Shown here: piece after piece, positions 7,482 through 43,179 of the stretch | Numbering within the stretch: position 1 is the first letter of the stretch | Layout: the number at the start of each line of letters is the position of its first letter | NCBI GenBank assembly: GCA_963750275.1 | Contig: CAVVQC010000005.1 | Coordinates: 756,105 to 820,104 of the forward strand | Direction of reading: 5' to 3' | DNA from: an uncultured Chloroflexia bacterium | GTDB taxonomy: Bacteria; Chloroflexota; Chloroflexia; Thermomicrobiales; UBA6265 | DNA length: 64,000 nucleotides | The notes under the pieces: model-generated | Database searches by the model: none | What the model saw: the letters and a program-made list of their open reading frames with translations, nothing else | Told to the model about the DNA's origin: nothing | Position numbers and translations under genes: made by a program

Positions 7482-9627
7482 TTACTCGTCCCCGCCAGAT
7501 ACCGGCAAATTCGCCTCGATACGTGTCCCGGCAGGATCGAGCGGCTCGGCCGCAAATGCGCCCCCAAGCTCCAACGCGCGCTCTCGCATCGATTGCAATC
7601 CAACGCCGGAGATACGGTCGGTCGCAATACCACCCCCATCGTCCTCGATCGTCAACCGGATTCCCGCTGAGTCATGCGCGATACGTATCACGCACCGAGT
7701 TGCATTGGCATGCCGCACGACATTCGTCAACGCCTCGTCGACGATATGGTAAATGGCCACTTCGACTGCTGCCGGCAGGTCACCCAGTTGATCCGGAGCG
7801 TCGAGCGTCACGAGCAAGCGACGCTCCGACATTGGACGCTCCTTCACCAAGATTGACGGTCGAAATCCGATTCTGCAGGGCGCCGATCAACCCCAGATCG
7901 TCGAGCGCTGCCGGCCGCAATCCTTGCACCAACCGGCGAATATCGGCGATGGCGGTGCGCAGCTCCTGTTGCAGCTCGGTTGCCTGTTCCACGGCCGCAT
8001 CCGGATCGCTGCGGATGGTTACCTTCATTGCCCCAGCCTGCAAGGTGAGCGCGGCCAGCTGCGCACCGAGCCCATCGTGCAAATCGCGGCGCAAACGGCG
8101 GCGTTCTTCTTCCCGGGCGGTCACGATCCGCTCGCGCGAAAGCTGCAAGTCATTCGTAAGGCGCACGTTGTGCGCCACCACCCCGATCTGGCGCGCCAGA
8201 TCGTCCAAAAGGCGCAGATCGGTCGAATCGAACTCGCGCGAGCCGGAACGCGGGGAGACGATCAACTCTCCCACCGGTTGCGATTGATAGATCAGCGGGA
8301 TTGGCACCTCGGTGGCGCCAGGTGTTCCGGCTACCGCGACCGGCAGCACCCCCGATTCGAGCGTAATCGCCGCATAGGGGAGGCGCAATGCTTCGGTCAG
8401 GGTGCGCACCGTCGCCCGCAAAGCTTCCACCGGCTGAATCGTTTCGGACAGATCGCCAGCCAGCTTGCGCAGCACCTCATAGGGATCGTCCCGATCGCCA
8501 TAGAAGAGGCGATTGACACCATGCTGTACGCGTGCCCGCATGGGCTGAAAAAGCACTGCGGTCAGGCCCAGTGCGAACAGCGTGAGCACGTTCGATCGAT
8601 CATGCTCGAAGCTCGATCCGATACCAAAAACAATGCCAACATAGGCAGCAATCACGAGCACCGTCATCAGAAGCCAGACCAGCGTACGGCTGATGACGAG
8701 ATCGATATCGAAGAGCCGGTACCGCAGAATCGCGATGGTCAGGCAGATGGGAAAAGCCAGCGAAAAGACCGGCACCGCAATCGTGAAGCCGAGCATAGCC
8801 AGCACTCCTCTGGGAGAGTCGTCGATATTCCGCATCATGGCGTCACCGATCAGAAATGCGGAAAGGGCGAGCACCACGCCAATAGCGCCCAATTTCATCT
8901 GCTGCCGCTGGACCGGGCTCGACTTCCAACGATACCGATAGATGAGCGTGCCAAGACCCAATACCAACAGCAGCAGATCGCTACCTGCCTCCACTACCCG
9001 GCCCAGGCCCTGGCTTGGGTCTCGTCCTGGCGCAGCGATAAACGAGCACACCATGATCATGTAGAACGCCGCCGGAATGGCGACCCATCGCGGCACAAAG
9101 GTGCCGGTCGGAAAGAGCAACGGCAGCAGAAATAGACTGGTAATGTTGAGCGCCGTCAGCATGATGCCAACGGCGAGCCAGACCGGCTCGCCGGCCAACT
9201 GCCGGTGCAGATCAGGGGGATAAACCGCGCCAATACCGGCAACGAAGGTCAGGGAGATGTAGAACGCAAACCAGTCGGTTCCCCGTCGTTTCCAAAGCAG
9301 GATCGCGCTCAGGACCACGGCCACCAGCGACTGGAGGAGCATTCCCCCCGCGACGACGATGGACAATGAACGCTCGGAGATCCCCAGACCCGCAAGATTC
9401 GACCGGAAACCAGCCGCCTCGGTCGCAGACATATCGGTCATGCCGAGAATATCGTCGACCTGCAGCGTGCTGGTCCGGACGAACATTGCCACCGCCAACA
9501 AGAGCACAATGAGCCAGAACATCATCTGCCCGCGACGAACCCGCGCGGGATCGAGTCCCACCAAAGCTCGCTGCCGGAATGATGCGCCGAATTGCATCGG
9601 TTGCGTCCATTCGCCTGTTGTTGGCAC
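7482..9627 (-). pseudogene. membrane sensor histidine kinase (HisKA_3 + HATPase_c), split by one frameshift as assembled
   Basis: ORF 7780..9627 has multiple TM helices, a GAF-like segment and the dimerisation/His block EERRRLRRDLHDGLGAQLAAL. The ATPase domain (LPAAVEVAIYHIVDEALTNVVRHA, IEDDGGGI, GVGLQSMRERA) is in overlapping ORF 7482..7850 in another frame. The shift lies somewhere around 7800-7870. It sits immediately upstream of the response regulator. Confidence 0.85.
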
Positions 9628-9677
9628 ACGTGGTTGCTATCGTAGAGTATCGAGACCCGCAGCGCCGATTCCTCGGC

Positions 9678-29616: not shown

Positions 29617-29710
29617 GATCGGTCAATGGAATCCTCCTGATCGCAACCGGCGCCCGTTCCAGATCGCCCCGTGCTACCCCGGAACCAGCCCCACATTTCG
29701 CCAATTCCTT

Positions 29711-29740
29711 GTCATTTTGAGCGAACGCGAAGAATCTCGC
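29711..29740 (+). repeat. dispersed ~30-nt repeat, copy 1
   Basis: The sequence is GTCATTTTGAGCGAACGCGAAGAATCTCGC in the divergent SDR/LAL intergenic region. It is ~85% identical over ~40 nt to the copy at 62168, including the ccttGTCATT flank. Confidence 0.7.
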
Positions 29741-29871
29741 TTCGTCTACGCTCGAAGCGCCTCGAGCTATGCTCACGACCCCAGTCCTCTGTAACTCCGA
29801 AACCGGTACGATACCTGTGCAAGGCACTCCGCCAAACGGCATCGACACCAGCCTGCCGGGGATCACACGCC

Positions 29872-38784: not shown

Positions 38785-41561
38785 TTATTGCGATGGTAGG
38801 TTGGTCGTGCCTGTTGCCGATACCGCTTCTTCAGGACGCCTGCGAGGCAGCAGCTCATCGAGAACGAAGTTGAAGTTGCCCCTTGTGCTGGGATCTGCCT
38901 TTCGCAGTCGATCCAGGAACAATCCGATGCCGGCTGCTCCAGATGCGAAATCGGCACTTTCTCGCATCGCCTGTTCGCCGGGGAAGCCAGTACCCTCCAA
39001 CGCCCCGATCTGAAACAGCAGCACGCCTTCGGCCGTTTGCCACGCACCAGCACGATGTGTTTCGTTTCCGGTGTACTCCCAGATATCGATGAGAGCATTC
39101 CCAAGTCCCGCGAGTCCATGGAAGAGCTGTGGCATGACCGCGTACTTGTGGCTCACATTGGCAGCTAATGGATCGAGCCATTTCTCAAGGCTGGGATCCC
39201 TTCGGACAGCCAGATAGCGAACCAATGTCGTGATGACTCCGGCCGTACCCGCATCCCAATAGCACCTAGGCGTCTGATTGAAATCTTCCCCATGTACGCT
39301 CACAATAGCGGGAAAGCCGACGAACGCACTATCCTGCCAAACCCCATGAGCCAAGTCAAAGTCTAGCGCTTGCCGCCCGGTGTCAATTGGCTGCTGCAAA
39401 CCTGTCGCCAAGTGGAGGTAGAGCAAAAAAAGCGCCACGCCGCTGCTCCCATAAGCGTAGCCATGCGCCACGGCACCTTCTTGCCCTGGCCAGTGAACCC
39501 CATGGTCGCTTCGCACCGCTGAAGAGATCAGATGGTCGCCCACGCCGACCGCGTCGTCGAGGAACTCATCTCCGTGTCCATTCATCCACATCTTCAGGCA
39601 GGCAAGTCCGTAACCAGCACATCCGTGGAGCACGTCGTGGGATCGAAAAAGCAGCTCATGGTTTCGGACAGAGCGCATGATGTTTAAAGCAACCTCAGGA
39701 AGACCGATTTCACCGGCCACCCAAGCCACTCCTGCTTGCCCCATGTACAGCCCAGGCGGATAAAGTTCGTTGGTAACTTGCCGGCGGGTTAGCCACGCCG
39801 ACAACCCTTCGGGAACCTCGCCAGTCAGTTGATAAATCGCATGCAGGACACCGGCAGTGCCATACGCTACTGATAGCGGATTCGTCTCGAACACGGTCAG
39901 GTCTCCCGGACAGAGGCGGTCCTCACGCTCTACGTCGGCGGTGCCGATGAGGTAATCCGCGACTGACCTGACGATGCGATCCAAATCCGCATGCAATACA
40001 TATCGTCCGTTACGCGTCAATCGCTCTCCCGCTGGTGTGGCGAGCCGCGGGATACGCGCCACCAATGAGCCAGGACGGCACGCGAGCTCCGAAATCGAGC
40101 GCTTGACCGACTCGGGGAAGACGCAGAAGGCTCGGTCAGCAGGCCATCCACCAGGGAAATTAACTCGTCTGAAAGTCCAAGGTCCTGCTTGAGTTCCTCG
40201 AGAAAGCCGGGCCTCGCCGTTGGATACAGATGGGTGAACCCGGTGGCCAGCATGATGCTCCCGAATATGAGGGATCCGAGCGCGTAGAAGTCGTTCGTCC
40301 GGTCGCAGATTCCTGAGAGCAGCGTGCCTGGAGACGTCACGCCGGGGGTATTGAGCCCGACCTGTGGGTCCTGCCCTTCTTCGACTGCGGACTCGAGATC
40401 GACGATGCATACCTTGTCAGAGCCGGAGACCAGTACATTCGTGAAGGACAAATCGCCAAGCACGATGTTTAGCTCATGCGCTGAAACAATGGCTTGAGCG
40501 ATCTGCAGCCACAGCTGACACATCGTTTCGAAGTACGCGTTCAGCTCGCTCCTAGAGGTTCGTCCATGATAGAGCGGATGCGTCCCAATGCTGAACTTGC
40601 CAATGTGGTCGCCCCTCACGAATTCCTCCGCGAGGAATCGTGCCCACCTTCGCGAAAGAACTCGATTGGCTTGACAAAGTAGCCGGTATCGGCCAGCCGG
40701 CCAAGCAAGCGCCACTCCTTCTCAAGAAGCTCGATTGAATCCAGGCCGAAACGTCCGACCTCGATATGAGGCCGTGACTCTTTATGACCACATCGAGCCT
40801 GACACTTTATCTCGTGCCAGGTAGACGCCGCCACGATTGGAAAATCGAAGCGCTGACGTTACGGAGAAACGTCCGTTGCCAAGATCTACTTCAGCTTTGA
40901 CGGCTGTTGTCGCCTTAGTCGGTACTGGAAACGGATCCTCTGCCCAATCCGGTGGACTCCAGAATGGAAATCGAATATCAGGGACAAGTTCGCCAGTGGG
41001 CGAGCAAATAACTTGACTTTGTGTTCCATCGACCTGCAGCACCGTTCTGGAAAGAAAGCCTCCATACCGATAGTAGACCGTTGACGAACCCGGCCAAGGT
41101 CGATCTGAAAGAATGTACGGGCCGGCGAAATGCTCAAGTGATTCTGCCAGGGCCTGTCCCATGGCAAGGAATTGCGACTGGCTTGCCGGGTATATCGTAA
41201 CGAGCTTGCCGCTCGAGCCGCGTTGCCACATTTTGCTATTTGTTGCGGCAGCGAGCGTGGGGTCCAGAAGGAATTTGAAGGGAGCATTCTGCTCGAAGAG
41301 CAGCGGAAAGACTCGCCCCAGCGCTTCTACCGCATCTTTCGTGAGAACAGAAACATGGATCTTCCAGCCTTGATCCGGGAGCGCTACGTCGTGGGGAGGG
41401 ACCGCAGAATACCAGATTCCACTTCGCTTGAGCTGCCAGCTACCAGGGGCAAGCGCTGAAAATACCGCCAGAAACTCTGAGCTTGGCTGATATCGAGACG
41501 GGCTTTCGAACCATCTGGGGTGATATTGGCTATAAAGGTAAAGACGCTCCCAACTATGCAT
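38785..41561 (-). pseudogene. lanKC: class III lanthipeptide synthetase (LanKC: lyase + Ser/Thr kinase-like + Zn-ligand-less LanC-like cyclase), reading frame broken 3-4 times as assembled
   Basis: Lyase part: ORF 40782..41561 (PDQGWKIHVS, VTIYP, YYRYGGF). Kinase part: spread over ORFs 40552..40791 / 40616..40834 / 40017..40715 (VVIKESRPHIE, LEKEWRLLGRL, FLAEEFVRG, NIVLGDLSFTNVLV, VCIVDLESA). Cyclase part: ORF 38785..40410 (GTAGVLHA, GQAGVAW, LHGCAGYG, YGSSGVALFL, YWDAGTAGV, FHGLAGLG, SGAAGIGLFL). Frame changes occur at ~40781-40797, ~40645-40653 and ~40114-40117 (cccc run). Confidence 0.85.
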
Positions 41562-41649
41562 GCGTGCTAGCCTTTCCCACTCGTGGAGGATCAGCAGGAG
41601 CGTGATCGTCCCTGACCGATTCTCGCCATCGTGGAAACGACTAGCACGC
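41562..41649 (-). promoter_or_regulatory. 9-bp inverted repeat able to pair the sequence abutting the lanKC start codon with an upstream segment (possible translational/processing control)
   Basis: GCGTGCTAG (41562-41570) is the exact reverse complement of CTAGCACGC (41641-41649). In the mRNA the 3' arm ends directly at the AUG and follows the GGGAAAGG RBS. The ~70-nt loop makes this weak evidence. Confidence 0.25.
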
Positions 41650-41708
41650 GAAACCCACCGTTGCGAAAACTAACTGAATGTGGTCATCCGAACCGTCTCG
41701 TCAGATGT

Positions 41709-41930
41709 TTACGCACAGCTATGGTGGTCACAGGACGTGACGCTGACGACAGCAATTTCGTCGTCGAATGTTGCGCCTCCTGCGGAGGGACGGCCGCTCA
41801 GGCGGTCCTGCAGGAGACGTTGCAGATCCAGCACAAGCGGCGGCATGCCAGCTGGCTGGTCTTTAGGGGAGAGAGGCTCTCGCGCTTCTCGACCGGGGGT
41901 TGCGCCACCTTGGGAAGACGTAGACATCAT
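41709..41930 (-). CDS. lanA1: class III lanthipeptide precursor peptide (copy 1)
   Basis: 73 aa: MMSTSSQGGATPGREAREPLSPKDQPAGMPPLVLDLQRLLQDRLSGRPSAGGATFDDEIAVVSVTSCDHHSCA. An AAAGGAG RBS is present, with an LDLQ-type leader motif and a Ser/Thr/Cys C-terminal core. It is co-directional with and 147 nt upstream of lanKC. Confidence 0.8.
   Translation of the reverse strand: MMSTSSQGGATPGREAREPLSPKDQPAGMPPLVLDLQRLLQDRLSGRPSAGGATFDDEIAVVSVTSCDHHSCA
41731..41927 (-). repeat. tandem duplication unit A (lanA1 coding DNA)
   Basis: It aligns base-for-base with 42175-42371 at an offset of 444 nt. By eye, the ~135 nt encoding the leader differ at one position, while the ~60 nt encoding the core carry about a dozen differences. 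Confidence 0.85.
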
Positions 41931-42130
41931 CGGCTCCTTTGATTTGGGCGGCGTTGCGCAATGTGAAGGATGCTGATCGGCTTCATCGGTGCGAATACTC
42001 TATCGACACCGAGAGGGTCAAATGCTCAAAAAATCGAGTTCAACTAATGCAGAGGGACGTGGCTGCCCATTGGTTCGAAGCCGATCAACTCAGGCGGTAG
42101 AGGGGTTATCCATCGATCGGATTTTGGAGA

Positions 42131-42161
42131 CTGTCAGGCCGAATTGATTCGGTTACTGACA
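42131..42161 (-). terminator. stem-loop overlapping the lanA2 stop codon (attenuator/partial terminator candidate)
   Basis: The mRNA reads TGTCAG-TAA-CCGAAT-ca-ATTCGG-c-CTGACA: two 6-bp stems whose 5' arm is the last two codons plus the stop. No U-tract follows. Confidence 0.4.
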
Positions 42162-42371
42162 ACTGTGATGAGAGCAGGACGTGACGCTGACGACGGCGAC
42201 TTCGTCACCAAATGTAGTGCCTCCTGCCGAGGGACGGCCGCTCAGGCGGTCCTGCAGGAGACGTTGCAGATCCAGCACAAGCGGCGGTATGCCAGCTGGC
42301 TGGTCTTTAGGGGAGAGAGGCTCTCGCGCTTCTCGACCGGGGGTTGCGCCACCTTGGGAAGACGTAGACAT
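42153..42371 (-). CDS. lanA2: class III lanthipeptide precursor peptide (copy 2)
   Basis: 72 aa from ATG 42371 (GGAAGGAG RBS 7 nt upstream): MSTSSQGGATPGREAREPLSPKDQPAGIPPLVLDLQRLLQDRLSGRPSAGGTTFGDEVAVVSVTSCSHHSCQ. The ORF-track start at 42407 adds 12 unlikely residues. Confidence 0.8.
   Translation of the reverse strand: MSTSSQGGATPGREAREPLSPKDQPAGIPPLVLDLQRLLQDRLSGRPSAGGTTFGDEVAVVSVTSCSHHSCQ
42175..42371 (-). repeat. tandem duplication unit B (lanA2 coding DNA)
   Basis: Partner of 41731-41927; see that entry. Confidence 0.85.
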
Positions 42372-42411
42372 TATTGACTCCTTCCAGGATAGAGTGGTGG
42401 GCTTCAATCAC

Positions 42412-42440
42412 AGCTTATGTCCACAATAGTCCAAAGTCAA
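42412..42440 (-). promoter_or_regulatory. candidate promoter of the lanA2-lanA1-lanKC unit
   Basis: The minus strand reads TTGACT (42435-42440), a 17-nt spacer, then TAAGCT (42412-42417), ~40 nt upstream of the lanA2 ATG. Confidence 0.35.
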
Positions 42441-42543
42441 TAGCGGCCGAAAAGCTCGACACTCCGGAGATCGGAGATTCCCTATCCCCTCGCTGAATGC
42501 TCAATTAAACGAATAGGTTGGGCCGAACGCTGTTACTCGCATC

Positions 42544-43179
42544 CTAGAACGACGGAGGCGTAATCGCGGCAATCACGATCGCAGGCGCCCCACTCCTGTT
42601 CCCCGCCCGGTGCGGCCGCGACGCATCGATCGTGATGCAATCACCCGCCTGCAAGACAAATTCCGCCCCATCCACCCAGAAGTGCATCTCCCCCTGGATC
42701 ACCACCATCTGTTCTTCCCCCGGATGGGTAAACGGCGCCAACGGTCCCTCCACCCCCGGCCCGAACTCGACCCAGATGAATTCGATCTGATGCCGCAAAT
42801 CGGGACTCATCAGCTCATAGGTCAATGTCGAATTGACCCCCAGCTTCTTGCGCTGATCGGCGCGCACCACCACCGGTTGCTGGCCGGGTTCATCCTCCAC
42901 CAGCTCGCCCTGAAAAAAGGTGCCGATCGGCACCTCCAGTGCCCGCGCCACCGACCAGAGCACATCCAGCGACGGGCTGGACAAACCTCGCTCCACCTGA
43001 CTGATCAAGCTGGTCGACACCCCACACGCCTTCGCCAGCGCCACCGTGCTCATCCGCTGTTCCTGCCGTAATCCCCGGATGATCCCGCCCAGATCGCGCA
43101 GCCGATCCTCCCGCGTTTCAGGGATTCCATCTGTTGTCGTCACTTGGCTGGCGTTCGACATCGCGCTGCCCGTTCCCAA
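42544..43179 (-). CDS. XRE-family transcriptional regulator with C-terminal cupin domain
   Basis: HTH_3: LRQEQRMSTVALAKACGVSTSLISQVERG. Cupin_2: HPGEEQMVVIQGEMHFWVDG..GDCITIDASRPHR. The start is TTG 43179 or ATG 43161. It is divergent from the aminotransferase operon. Confidence 0.85.
   Translation of the reverse strand: MGTGSAMSNASQVTTTDGIPETREDRLRDLGGIIRGLRQEQRMSTVALAKACGVSTSLISQVERGLSSPSLDVLWSVARALEVPIGTFFQGELVEDEPGQQPVVVRADQRKKLGVNSTLTYELMSPDLRHQIEFIWVEFGPGVEGPLAPFTHPGEEQMVVIQGEMHFWVDGAEFVLQAGDCITIDASRPHRAGNRSGAPAIVIAAITPPSF

Follow-up and report, generated by a model that had tools for sequence, protein, structure and literature searches.

Precursors of class III lanthipeptides carry a leader with an LxLQ or ILELQ motif (PMC8341899, PMC7268733) and a core that follows the consensus Sx2Sx2-5C, in which the two serines are always two residues apart (PMC8341899). 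A survey located most of their synthetases, the LanKC enzymes, in Actinobacteria and Firmicutes; from Cyanobacteria it recovered LanM enzymes alone (PMC7268733, Walker et al. 2020). The class also includes noursin, a copper-binding peptide with a labionin of unusual spacing and a histidinobutyrine crosslink (PMC10206099). Here we examined a pair of tandem precursor genes, lanA-1 and lanA-2, located in a 64,000-nucleotide stretch of DNA from an uncultured Chloroflexia bacterium (contig CAVVQC010000005.1, positions 756,105 to 820,104; hereafter the window, in whose numbering coordinates are given unless another locus is named). An earlier note, made from this sequence alone, had described nearly identical leader-coding DNA, diverged cores and a non-canonical ring motif. 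We consider it likely that the pair heads a minimal class III cluster, composed of lanA-2, lanA-1, lanKC and a convergent gene for a luciferase-like (LLM) oxidoreductase, and that the leaders of the two precursors were homogenised by conversion.

Both genes are encoded on the minus strand, a point absent from the earlier note, at 41709..41927 (lanA-1) and 42153..42371 (lanA-2), with the offset of 444 nt that it had reported. Each encodes a peptide of 72 amino acids, MSTSSQGGATPGREAREPLSPKDQPAGMPPLVLDLQRLLQDRLSGRPSAGGATFDDEIAVVSVTSCDHHSCA for lanA-1 and ...AGIPPLVLDLQRLLQDRLSGRPSAGGTTFGDEVAVVSVTSCSHHSCQ for its paralogue, and the two share one 90% cluster (P0001/P0002). The assignment of lanA-1 is based on its open reading frame (ORF), on an AGGAG sequence 6 nt upstream of the ATG, which lanA-2 has as well, and on homologous precursors upstream of LanKC genes in related loci. 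The lanA-1 start is the second of two ATG codons; another in-frame ATG stands one codon upstream at 41930, and lanA-2 lacks it. No Pfam family was assigned to either precursor, a single-sequence search with lanA-1 matched only its own cluster, and an exact search of metagenomes for 30 nt of the leader DNA gave 0 matches. The copies can be aligned from ATG to stop codon only. Their flanks on both sides are unalignable, and the upstream intergenic regions are unrelated to each other, apart from a 17-nt element (AATGCTCAAAAAATCGA / AATGCTCAATTAAACGA, at 42021..42037 and 42496..42512) that stands ~95-140 nt upstream of each start codon and could be the remnant of a promoter or operator.

Both peptides carry V32-L-D-L-Q36, in agreement with the (I/V)LxLQ form of the class III leader. 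The recognition motif L31-V-L-D-L-Q36, assigned from family-conserved columns and from the published LxLQ/ILELQ motif, is encoded on the minus strand at 41820..41837 in lanA-1 and 42264..42281 in lanA-2. The core signature S62-V-T-S65-C66-D-H-H-S70-C71 is encoded on the same strand at 41715..41744, and its lanA-2 counterpart, with S-H-H, at 42159..42188; the cores end in ...ATFDDEIAVVSVTSCDHHSCA and ...TTFGDEVAVVSVTSCSHHSCQ, that is, in Cys-Ala and Cys-Gln. Read as S62-VT-S65-CDHHS-C71, the motif is Sx2Sx5C. The strict spacing Sx2Sx3C is absent, as the earlier note had said, but Sx2Sx5C falls within the published consensus (PMC8341899), and the decapeptide proved to be the signature of a family. 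With the canonical members of the class (labyrinthopeptins, SapB/AmfS, curvopeptin) the system shares a tri-domain LanKC without zinc-ligand cysteines, an LxLQ helix and the Sx2Sx2-5C consensus. In contrast to them, its core has one motif where two are usual, a cysteine spacing of x5, an additional invariant Cys right after the second Ser, and a Ser right before the last Cys. No class III pattern found in the literature includes the extra invariant Cys66 and Ser70. Membership in the SapB/AmfS group was rejected, as the window peptides gave no match to NF033212 at E up to 10.

Divergence between the two copies is distributed very unevenly. Nucleotides 1-143 of the genes contain one difference (ATG/ATA at nt 84, Met28/Ile28), which bears out the near-identity of the leader DNA noticed before, whereas nucleotides 144-216 contain 18 differences over 12 codons, six with synonymous changes only and six amino-acid changing (Fisher p = 1.7e-8). 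Earlier, the core substitutions had been put at "about a dozen", which is right for codons and too low for nucleotides. Amino-acid changes were found in 6 of the 25 C-terminal codons and in 1 of the 47 leader codons. Substitution rates were estimated by Nei-Gojobori counting, with codons 1-47 taken as leader and codons 48-72 as core half. None of the 40 synonymous sites of the leader is changed, and one non-synonymous difference is present (pS and dS 0, dN 0.01, ratio dN/dS of non-synonymous to synonymous rates not defined). In the core half, 11 differences over 17.8 synonymous sites bring silent divergence near saturation (pS 0.62, dS ~1.3), with dN 0.13 and dN/dS ~0.1. At the rate of the core, the leader should have accumulated ~25 silent differences, and 0 were observed (P ~2e-17).

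Since silent differences lie beyond the reach of protein-level selection and none is seen in the leader, lanA-1 and lanA-2 are best explained as old paralogues whose 5' 143 nt were recently homogenised, with gene conversion as the simplest mechanism. The putative converted tract occupies 41785..41927 in lanA-1 and 42229..42371 in lanA-2, both minus strand and with the same divergence counts, and codes for the N-terminal extension together with the recognition helix of the leader. The dN/dS of ~0.1, together with the retention of Cys66, His68, His69 and Ser70 by codons that differ synonymously between the copies, indicates that the core halves are conserved under purifying selection rather than diversifying. 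The earlier note had proposed duplication or gene conversion that preserves the leader while the cores diversify, to be checked by pairwise alignment with dN/dS of leader and core; run here, that comparison sustained the conversion and spoke against the diversification.

The gene directly downstream of the pair encodes the synthetase. LanKC (38785..41561, minus) has lyase, kinase and cyclase domains and is interrupted by four 1-nt frameshifts. As assembled, it appears as three large ORFs that match positions 3-245, 299-478 and 483-832 of the class III model NF038151 with 270, 102 and 264 bits. Insertion of one base at each of the four sites gives an uninterrupted ORF of 926 amino acids, which scores 715 bits on NF038151 (cut-off 575) over model positions 3-832 of 833. 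The earlier assignment of the pair as lanthipeptide precursors beside a class III LanKC is supported. Assignment to class IV was rejected; the repaired protein scores 501 bits on NF038150, under the cut-off of 650 and under its class III score. Matches to solved LanKC structures of class III were obtained for it as well. LanC-type cyclases have WCxG and CHG at the places where, by eye, the cyclase domain here has ...CYWDAGTAG... and ...LFHGLAG..., so that the Cys/Cys zinc ligands are absent, as in class III. The protein is only ~30-36% identical to typical actinobacterial LanKCs, and its N-terminal 478 amino acids are 41-62% identical to the members of its own clade.

Following this clade outward revealed a precursor family. 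Small ORFs that encode a (V/I)LxLQ leader and an S-x2-S-C-x3-S-C core were found upstream of each of the nearest LanKC homologues (46-62% identity). As members we counted precursors in which the S,S,C,S,C spacing follows (V/I)LxLQ and whose gene lies immediately upstream of a clade LanKC (at least 41% identity). The core motif is invariant in more than 100 precursors adjoining LanKCs of this one clade in at least four phyla, with members in Actinomycetota, Acidobacteriota, Cyanobacteria, Myxococcota and Chloroflexota-type genomes, a distribution broader than the picture of Walker et al. 2020. In two alignments, with 29 and 44 members, M1, L33, Q36, S62, S65, C66, S70 and C71 came out as invariant columns and L35 reached at least 90% conservation; both window peptides carry all invariant columns. 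A profile search of 1.84 billion representatives returned 85 matches at E up to 0.001 (50% clustering), and the exact motif is present in 65 of the 74 new ones; the core motif, which the earlier note had called non-canonical and wanted looked up among known precursors, is therefore no oddity. Named matches are called "hypothetical protein", and one has a thiazolylpeptide-type UniRef name.

The cores of individual members vary around this scaffold. Those of loci L001 and L005 are of the ...DEVAVVSITSCDHHSC type; L001 has ...GPDEVAVVSITSCNSYSCR and ...GPDEVAIVSITSCDHHSC, and in the three copies of L005, positions 67-69 are NNN, HNH and THH. The core ...HEVGYVSLTSCDHHSCGGPGGG... is found in Streptomyces zaomyceticus and S. 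sp. NPDC058661; in the former it reads ...SLTSCDHHSC, of which TSCDHHSC is identical to the window. Kitasatospora has 3-4 copies of ...SxSSCDSHSC; Lentzea, Kibdelosporangium and Rhodococcus have ...SCSSCxxxSC; Bryobacteraceae and many metagenome contigs have ...VRSCTSCLQDSCNKPP...; and the motif is also present in a Leptolyngbyaceae cyanobacterium and in Corallococcus. The greatest variability in the family lies at positions 67-69, between Cys66 and Ser70 (DHH, SHH, THH, NSY, NNN, DSH, LQD, GGA and others), and position 64 is Ser, Gly or Thr. Many members total 33-40 amino acids, start 2-3 residues before (V/I)LxLQ and end exactly at the last Cys. The window peptides have an additional, poorly conserved N-terminal extension of ~30 amino acids, which explains the long leader that had correctly been noticed before.

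Partial identity among precursors of one locus recurs in the family. The two precursors of L001 share a nearly identical 57-nt stretch coding for the leader helix, and those of L090 (3..462 of that contig) have identical N-terminal leaders and different cores. In Kitasatospora loci, 3-4 tandem copies are alike at their 5' and 3' ends and differ mid-gene; the three copies of L012 (7398..7907) share a 5' region and the last 21 nt. Of the three precursors of L005/L004 (5392..5572), the middle one is frameshifted. Concerted evolution appears to be frequent among the precursor arrays of this family.

Part of the family is already recognised by annotation. Five short members (P0193, P0199, P0210, P0215, P0226) and the L026 peptide score 27-38 bits on the 33-position model NF038160, "lanthi_III_c" (cut-off 27). 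Since short members pass this model, annotators already know the family as one of class III precursors; the model name is generic, and no characterised product was found for it. In contrast, lanA-1 and lanA-2 score 13.4 and 15.6 bits, with only the core aligned (model positions 17/18-31), and differ from the model by their N-terminal extension and by a longer spacer between LxLQ and core. The newly described "class III-c" group of Firmicutes (TherKC, with STxSNxC cores) is different from the window family. A full-text literature search for core strings such as TSCDHHSC found no paper, and a search for class III systems in genera such as Kitasatospora and Lentzea turned up computational groups only, none of them characterised.

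Two other described types share single features with the pair. Noursin and its LanKC-Hbt enzyme likewise combine a class III synthetase with a single labionin unit of non-standard spacing. The noursin pattern, however, is S-x3-S-x7-C, with S3, S7 and C15 in the labionin, T8 and H11 in addition, and a functionally important core His (PMC10206099); noursin has one Cys and the window family two, noursin enzymes form their own cluster, and His is not conserved in the window family. Membership in the noursin type, where a Thr comes right after the central labionin Ser and a His stands three residues further on, was rejected: Thr64 precedes Ser65, the His residues stand at +4 and +5, and neither His nor Thr is family-conserved. 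Lipolanthines (microvionin; MicKC and MicD) are alike in having a single C-terminal Sx2SxnC unit on a short core, but their leaders belong to another family (PMC8341899). Membership in this lipolanthine/avionin group was rejected as well, as no HFCD decarboxylase or lipid-attachment genes were found in the island that holds the pair and one residue follows the last Cys.

That island is delimited by comparison with close relatives. Contigs L129 and L130 are collinear with the window at 80-86% nucleotide identity, and L129 joins position 37375 directly to 42544 through 246 nt of its own sequence (L129 5999..6244), in which no remnant of the island was found. The missing segment (37376..42543, 5,168 nt) has a GC content of 0.567, against 0.608 in the rest of the window, and holds exactly the LLM gene, LanKC, lanA-1 and lanA-2; its absence from the relatives marks the bounds of the gene cluster and shows the LLM gene to be part of it. 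The solute-binding protein that flanks it groups, at identities of 90% or more, with proteins of Thermomicrobiales metagenome-assembled genomes (MAGs), and an XRE-cupin regulator gene (42544..43179) belongs to the core genome, outside the island. Part of our best explanation is therefore that the island is a horizontally acquired minimal gene cluster in a Thermomicrobiales-like genome. No direct repeats were found flanking its ends, and scans of the island for sigma-70 promoters and intrinsic terminators gave nothing above chance. A second segment of the window (29621..36587), with genes for a LAL regulator, a hydrolase, an ABM protein and a disulfide oxidoreductase, is likewise missing from L129. 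In S. zaomyceticus, a convergent ABC exporter gene (L009 10800..12752, minus) adjoins LanKC. On the Solibacterales contig L003 (6200..10520), type III-A (Csm) CRISPR effector genes directly follow the LanKC locus, probably by coincidence.

The LLM gene (37748..38779, plus), convergent with LanKC, encodes a luciferase-like flavin oxidoreductase of the MsnO8 family (TIGR03558, 342 bits; closest solved structure 4US5). Orthologues with 40-54% identity stand beside LanKC in at least 16 related loci of several phyla (L001, L002/L047, L006, L013, L015, L017-L023, L025, L080, L089 and L123). All-versus-all clustering of neighbouring ORFs gave only LanKC and LLM in common with the window, with the result swamped by shadow ORFs in the high-GC loci. 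Luciferase-like enzymes carry out thioether oxidation in actagardine biosynthesis (GarO) and reduction of dehydroalanine (Dha) in that of lexapeptide (LxmJ). The LLM enzyme is most likely an optional tailoring enzyme; no described role for an MsnO8-family enzyme in class III lanthipeptide pathways was found in the literature. In the gap from the lanA-1 stop codon to the start of LanKC, an inverted repeat forms a predicted RNA hairpin of 88 nt (41562..41649, minus), whose 3' arm abuts the LanKC ATG. Folding of the surrounding 147-nt intergenic region gave -60.8 kcal/mol (z = -3.9), a stability that 0 of 200 shuffled sequences equalled. This hairpin may set the ratio of precursor to enzyme or control translation of LanKC.

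From what is established for the class, we propose how the locus would work; ring connectivity and the roles of LLM and hairpin are the conjectural parts of this proposal. The amphipathic leader helix PPLVLDLQRLLQDRL would dock on LanKC, which would phosphorylate core Ser and Thr residues and then eliminate the phosphate to give Dha and dehydrobutyrine (Dhb). The zinc-free cyclase domain would add Cys66 and Cys71 onto the dehydro residues, and the product would be a labionin or lanthionine from S62, S65 and C71 (the Sx2Sx5C unit) and a lanthionine from C66 and Dha70. The resulting compact polycycle of 10 residues would display the variable tripeptide 67-69, D/S-H-H in the window. LLM would probably add an optional modification, S-oxidation of a thioether or reduction of Dha. 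The recent conversion of ~143 nt from the ATG would keep both peptides substrates of the single LanKC. Of the possible topologies, labionin 62/65/71 with lanthionine 66-70 appears the most likely, because it exactly consumes the three invariant Ser and the two invariant Cys; our confidence in it remains somewhat short of even.

Several points weigh against our reading of the locus. LanKC as assembled, with its four frameshifts, is untranslatable. No gene for an exporter or a leader protease was found in the island. About half of the family loci lack the LLM gene, which is therefore not obligatory. The conversion tract is drawn from two sequences only. A literature search found no determined structure or characterised product for any family member, which makes the ring pattern a guess, and the same residues could instead form overlapping lanthionines 62-66 and 65-71, with Dha70 left over, the main alternative topology.

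The first two of these points, together with the absence of the accessory island from close relatives, would fit a decaying relic, in which LanKC is a true pseudogene, processing of the precursors has ceased, and intact precursor genes with identical leaders survive as leftovers. The nature of the lesions argues otherwise. By homology-guided inspection, all four are single-base deletions at short homopolymers (~40798, ~40781, ~40638 and ~40118), crowded within ~700 nt of the kinase region, and the first three jointly restore the original frame; apart from these the 926-residue frame is clean and well conserved. Two unrelated genes of the window are broken too, namely a NarL-type sensor kinase (7482..9636, minus), which is frameshifted once so that HisKA_3 and HATPase_c lie in different frames, and an AAA_16-TPR-GerE (LAL-type) regulator (29641..32266, plus), which is split into four overlapping ORFs. 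Because of these, the LanKC frameshifts are probably assembly errors. Split LanKC genes and one frameshifted lanA were also found on related contigs, whose "contig_N" names are typical of long-read assemblers and one of which comes from MAG MFD05747. GANTC sites (40109, 40635 and 40776) stand within 7 nt of three of the four LanKC lesions, when ~5% of the positions in the window are 6 nt or less from such a site; none was found in the frameshift zones of the AAA_16-TPR-GerE regulator gene, and the coincidence gives a weak hint of methylation-linked basecalling error in LanKC. With both precursors intact and core dN/dS at ~0.1, we regard a relic as unlikely, though deserving serious weight.

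A more far-reaching version of the working cluster would combine an undescribed nested topology, with labionin 62/65/71 and the thioether 66-70 inside its larger ring, LLM tailoring in about half of the loci, and metal binding or crosslinking by the displayed D/S-H-H loop in the His-rich lineage, to which the window and Streptomyces zaomyceticus belong. We consider this combination decidedly unlikely. If true, it would define a new structural subclass of class III, extending over at least four phyla.

Homogenised leaders also have to be weighed against plain selection that fixes the leader and drives the cores apart as a peptide library. In multi-precursor loci of ribosomally synthesised peptides with post-translational modifications (RiPPs), such as those of prochlorosins and the patE cassettes of cyanobactins, leaders are conserved and cores are variable. 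The window resembles them in that several precursors share one enzyme through a common leader and that leader DNA is more alike than core DNA, and the excess of amino-acid changes in the C-terminal codons, with the varied positions 67-69 at other loci with 2-4 precursors, would agree with a library. Protein selection, however, cannot remove synonymous differences, which are wholly lacking at the leader's 40 silent sites. The window cores are not hypervariable either: the scaffold is invariant, both His residues are kept through synonymous changes, variation is confined to non-scaffold positions, and the identity of the leaders derives, on our reading, from recent homogenisation and not from selection alone. 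Selection for diverse cores is thus an improbable account of the pair.

Little probability is likewise left to a function of the two histidines as such, either in a noursin-like crosslink of His68 or His69 to Dhb formed from Thr64 or, with thioether sulfur, in binding a metal such as copper. The precedent is noursin itself, crosslinked and copper-binding (PMC10206099). Both His codons differ synonymously between lanA-1 and lanA-2, which points to maintenance of the residues, and DHH, SHH or THH recurs in the window, in L001 and L005, in the Streptomyces loci L007 and L009 and in P0219 (...GDEVAVVSVTSCTHHSCT), an example from the lineage nearest to the window. Close relatives, however, carry NSY, NNN, NQQ or NSH at positions 67-69; many members have Ser or Gly at position 64, so that no Dhb could form; and noursin has a different residue pattern, with enzymes in a separate cluster. 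Since positions 67-69 are the most variable ones, His-His is not a family feature, and the C-x-H-H-x-C metal site suggested in the earlier note loses its basis there; a metal role specific to one lineage retains a small chance. Very improbable, finally, is that the identical leader halves are an artefact of assembly or polishing, in which reads of one paralogue corrected the other: although the assembly clearly holds indel errors, the copies are 444 nt apart and single long reads span both, the identity ends sharply at nt 143 with one real difference kept at nt 84, and independent assemblies (L001, L012) show similar tracts, as do the two identical N-terminal leaders of L090.

The window pair is a divergent class III member in an unusual host lineage, and it does not overturn the current understanding of lanthipeptides. 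Following it outward has defined a family with an invariant S-x2-S-C-x3-S-C core and a frequent luciferase-like partner, whose cultured members, for example Streptomyces zaomyceticus JCM 4864 and Kitasatospora griseola JCM 3339, open the ring pattern and any role of the histidines to direct experiment. For the evolution of such loci, lanA-1 and lanA-2 provide a clean, small case of concerted evolution in a RiPP locus, in which a putative conversion tract of ~143 nt would keep two old paralogues compatible with one leader-reading enzyme.

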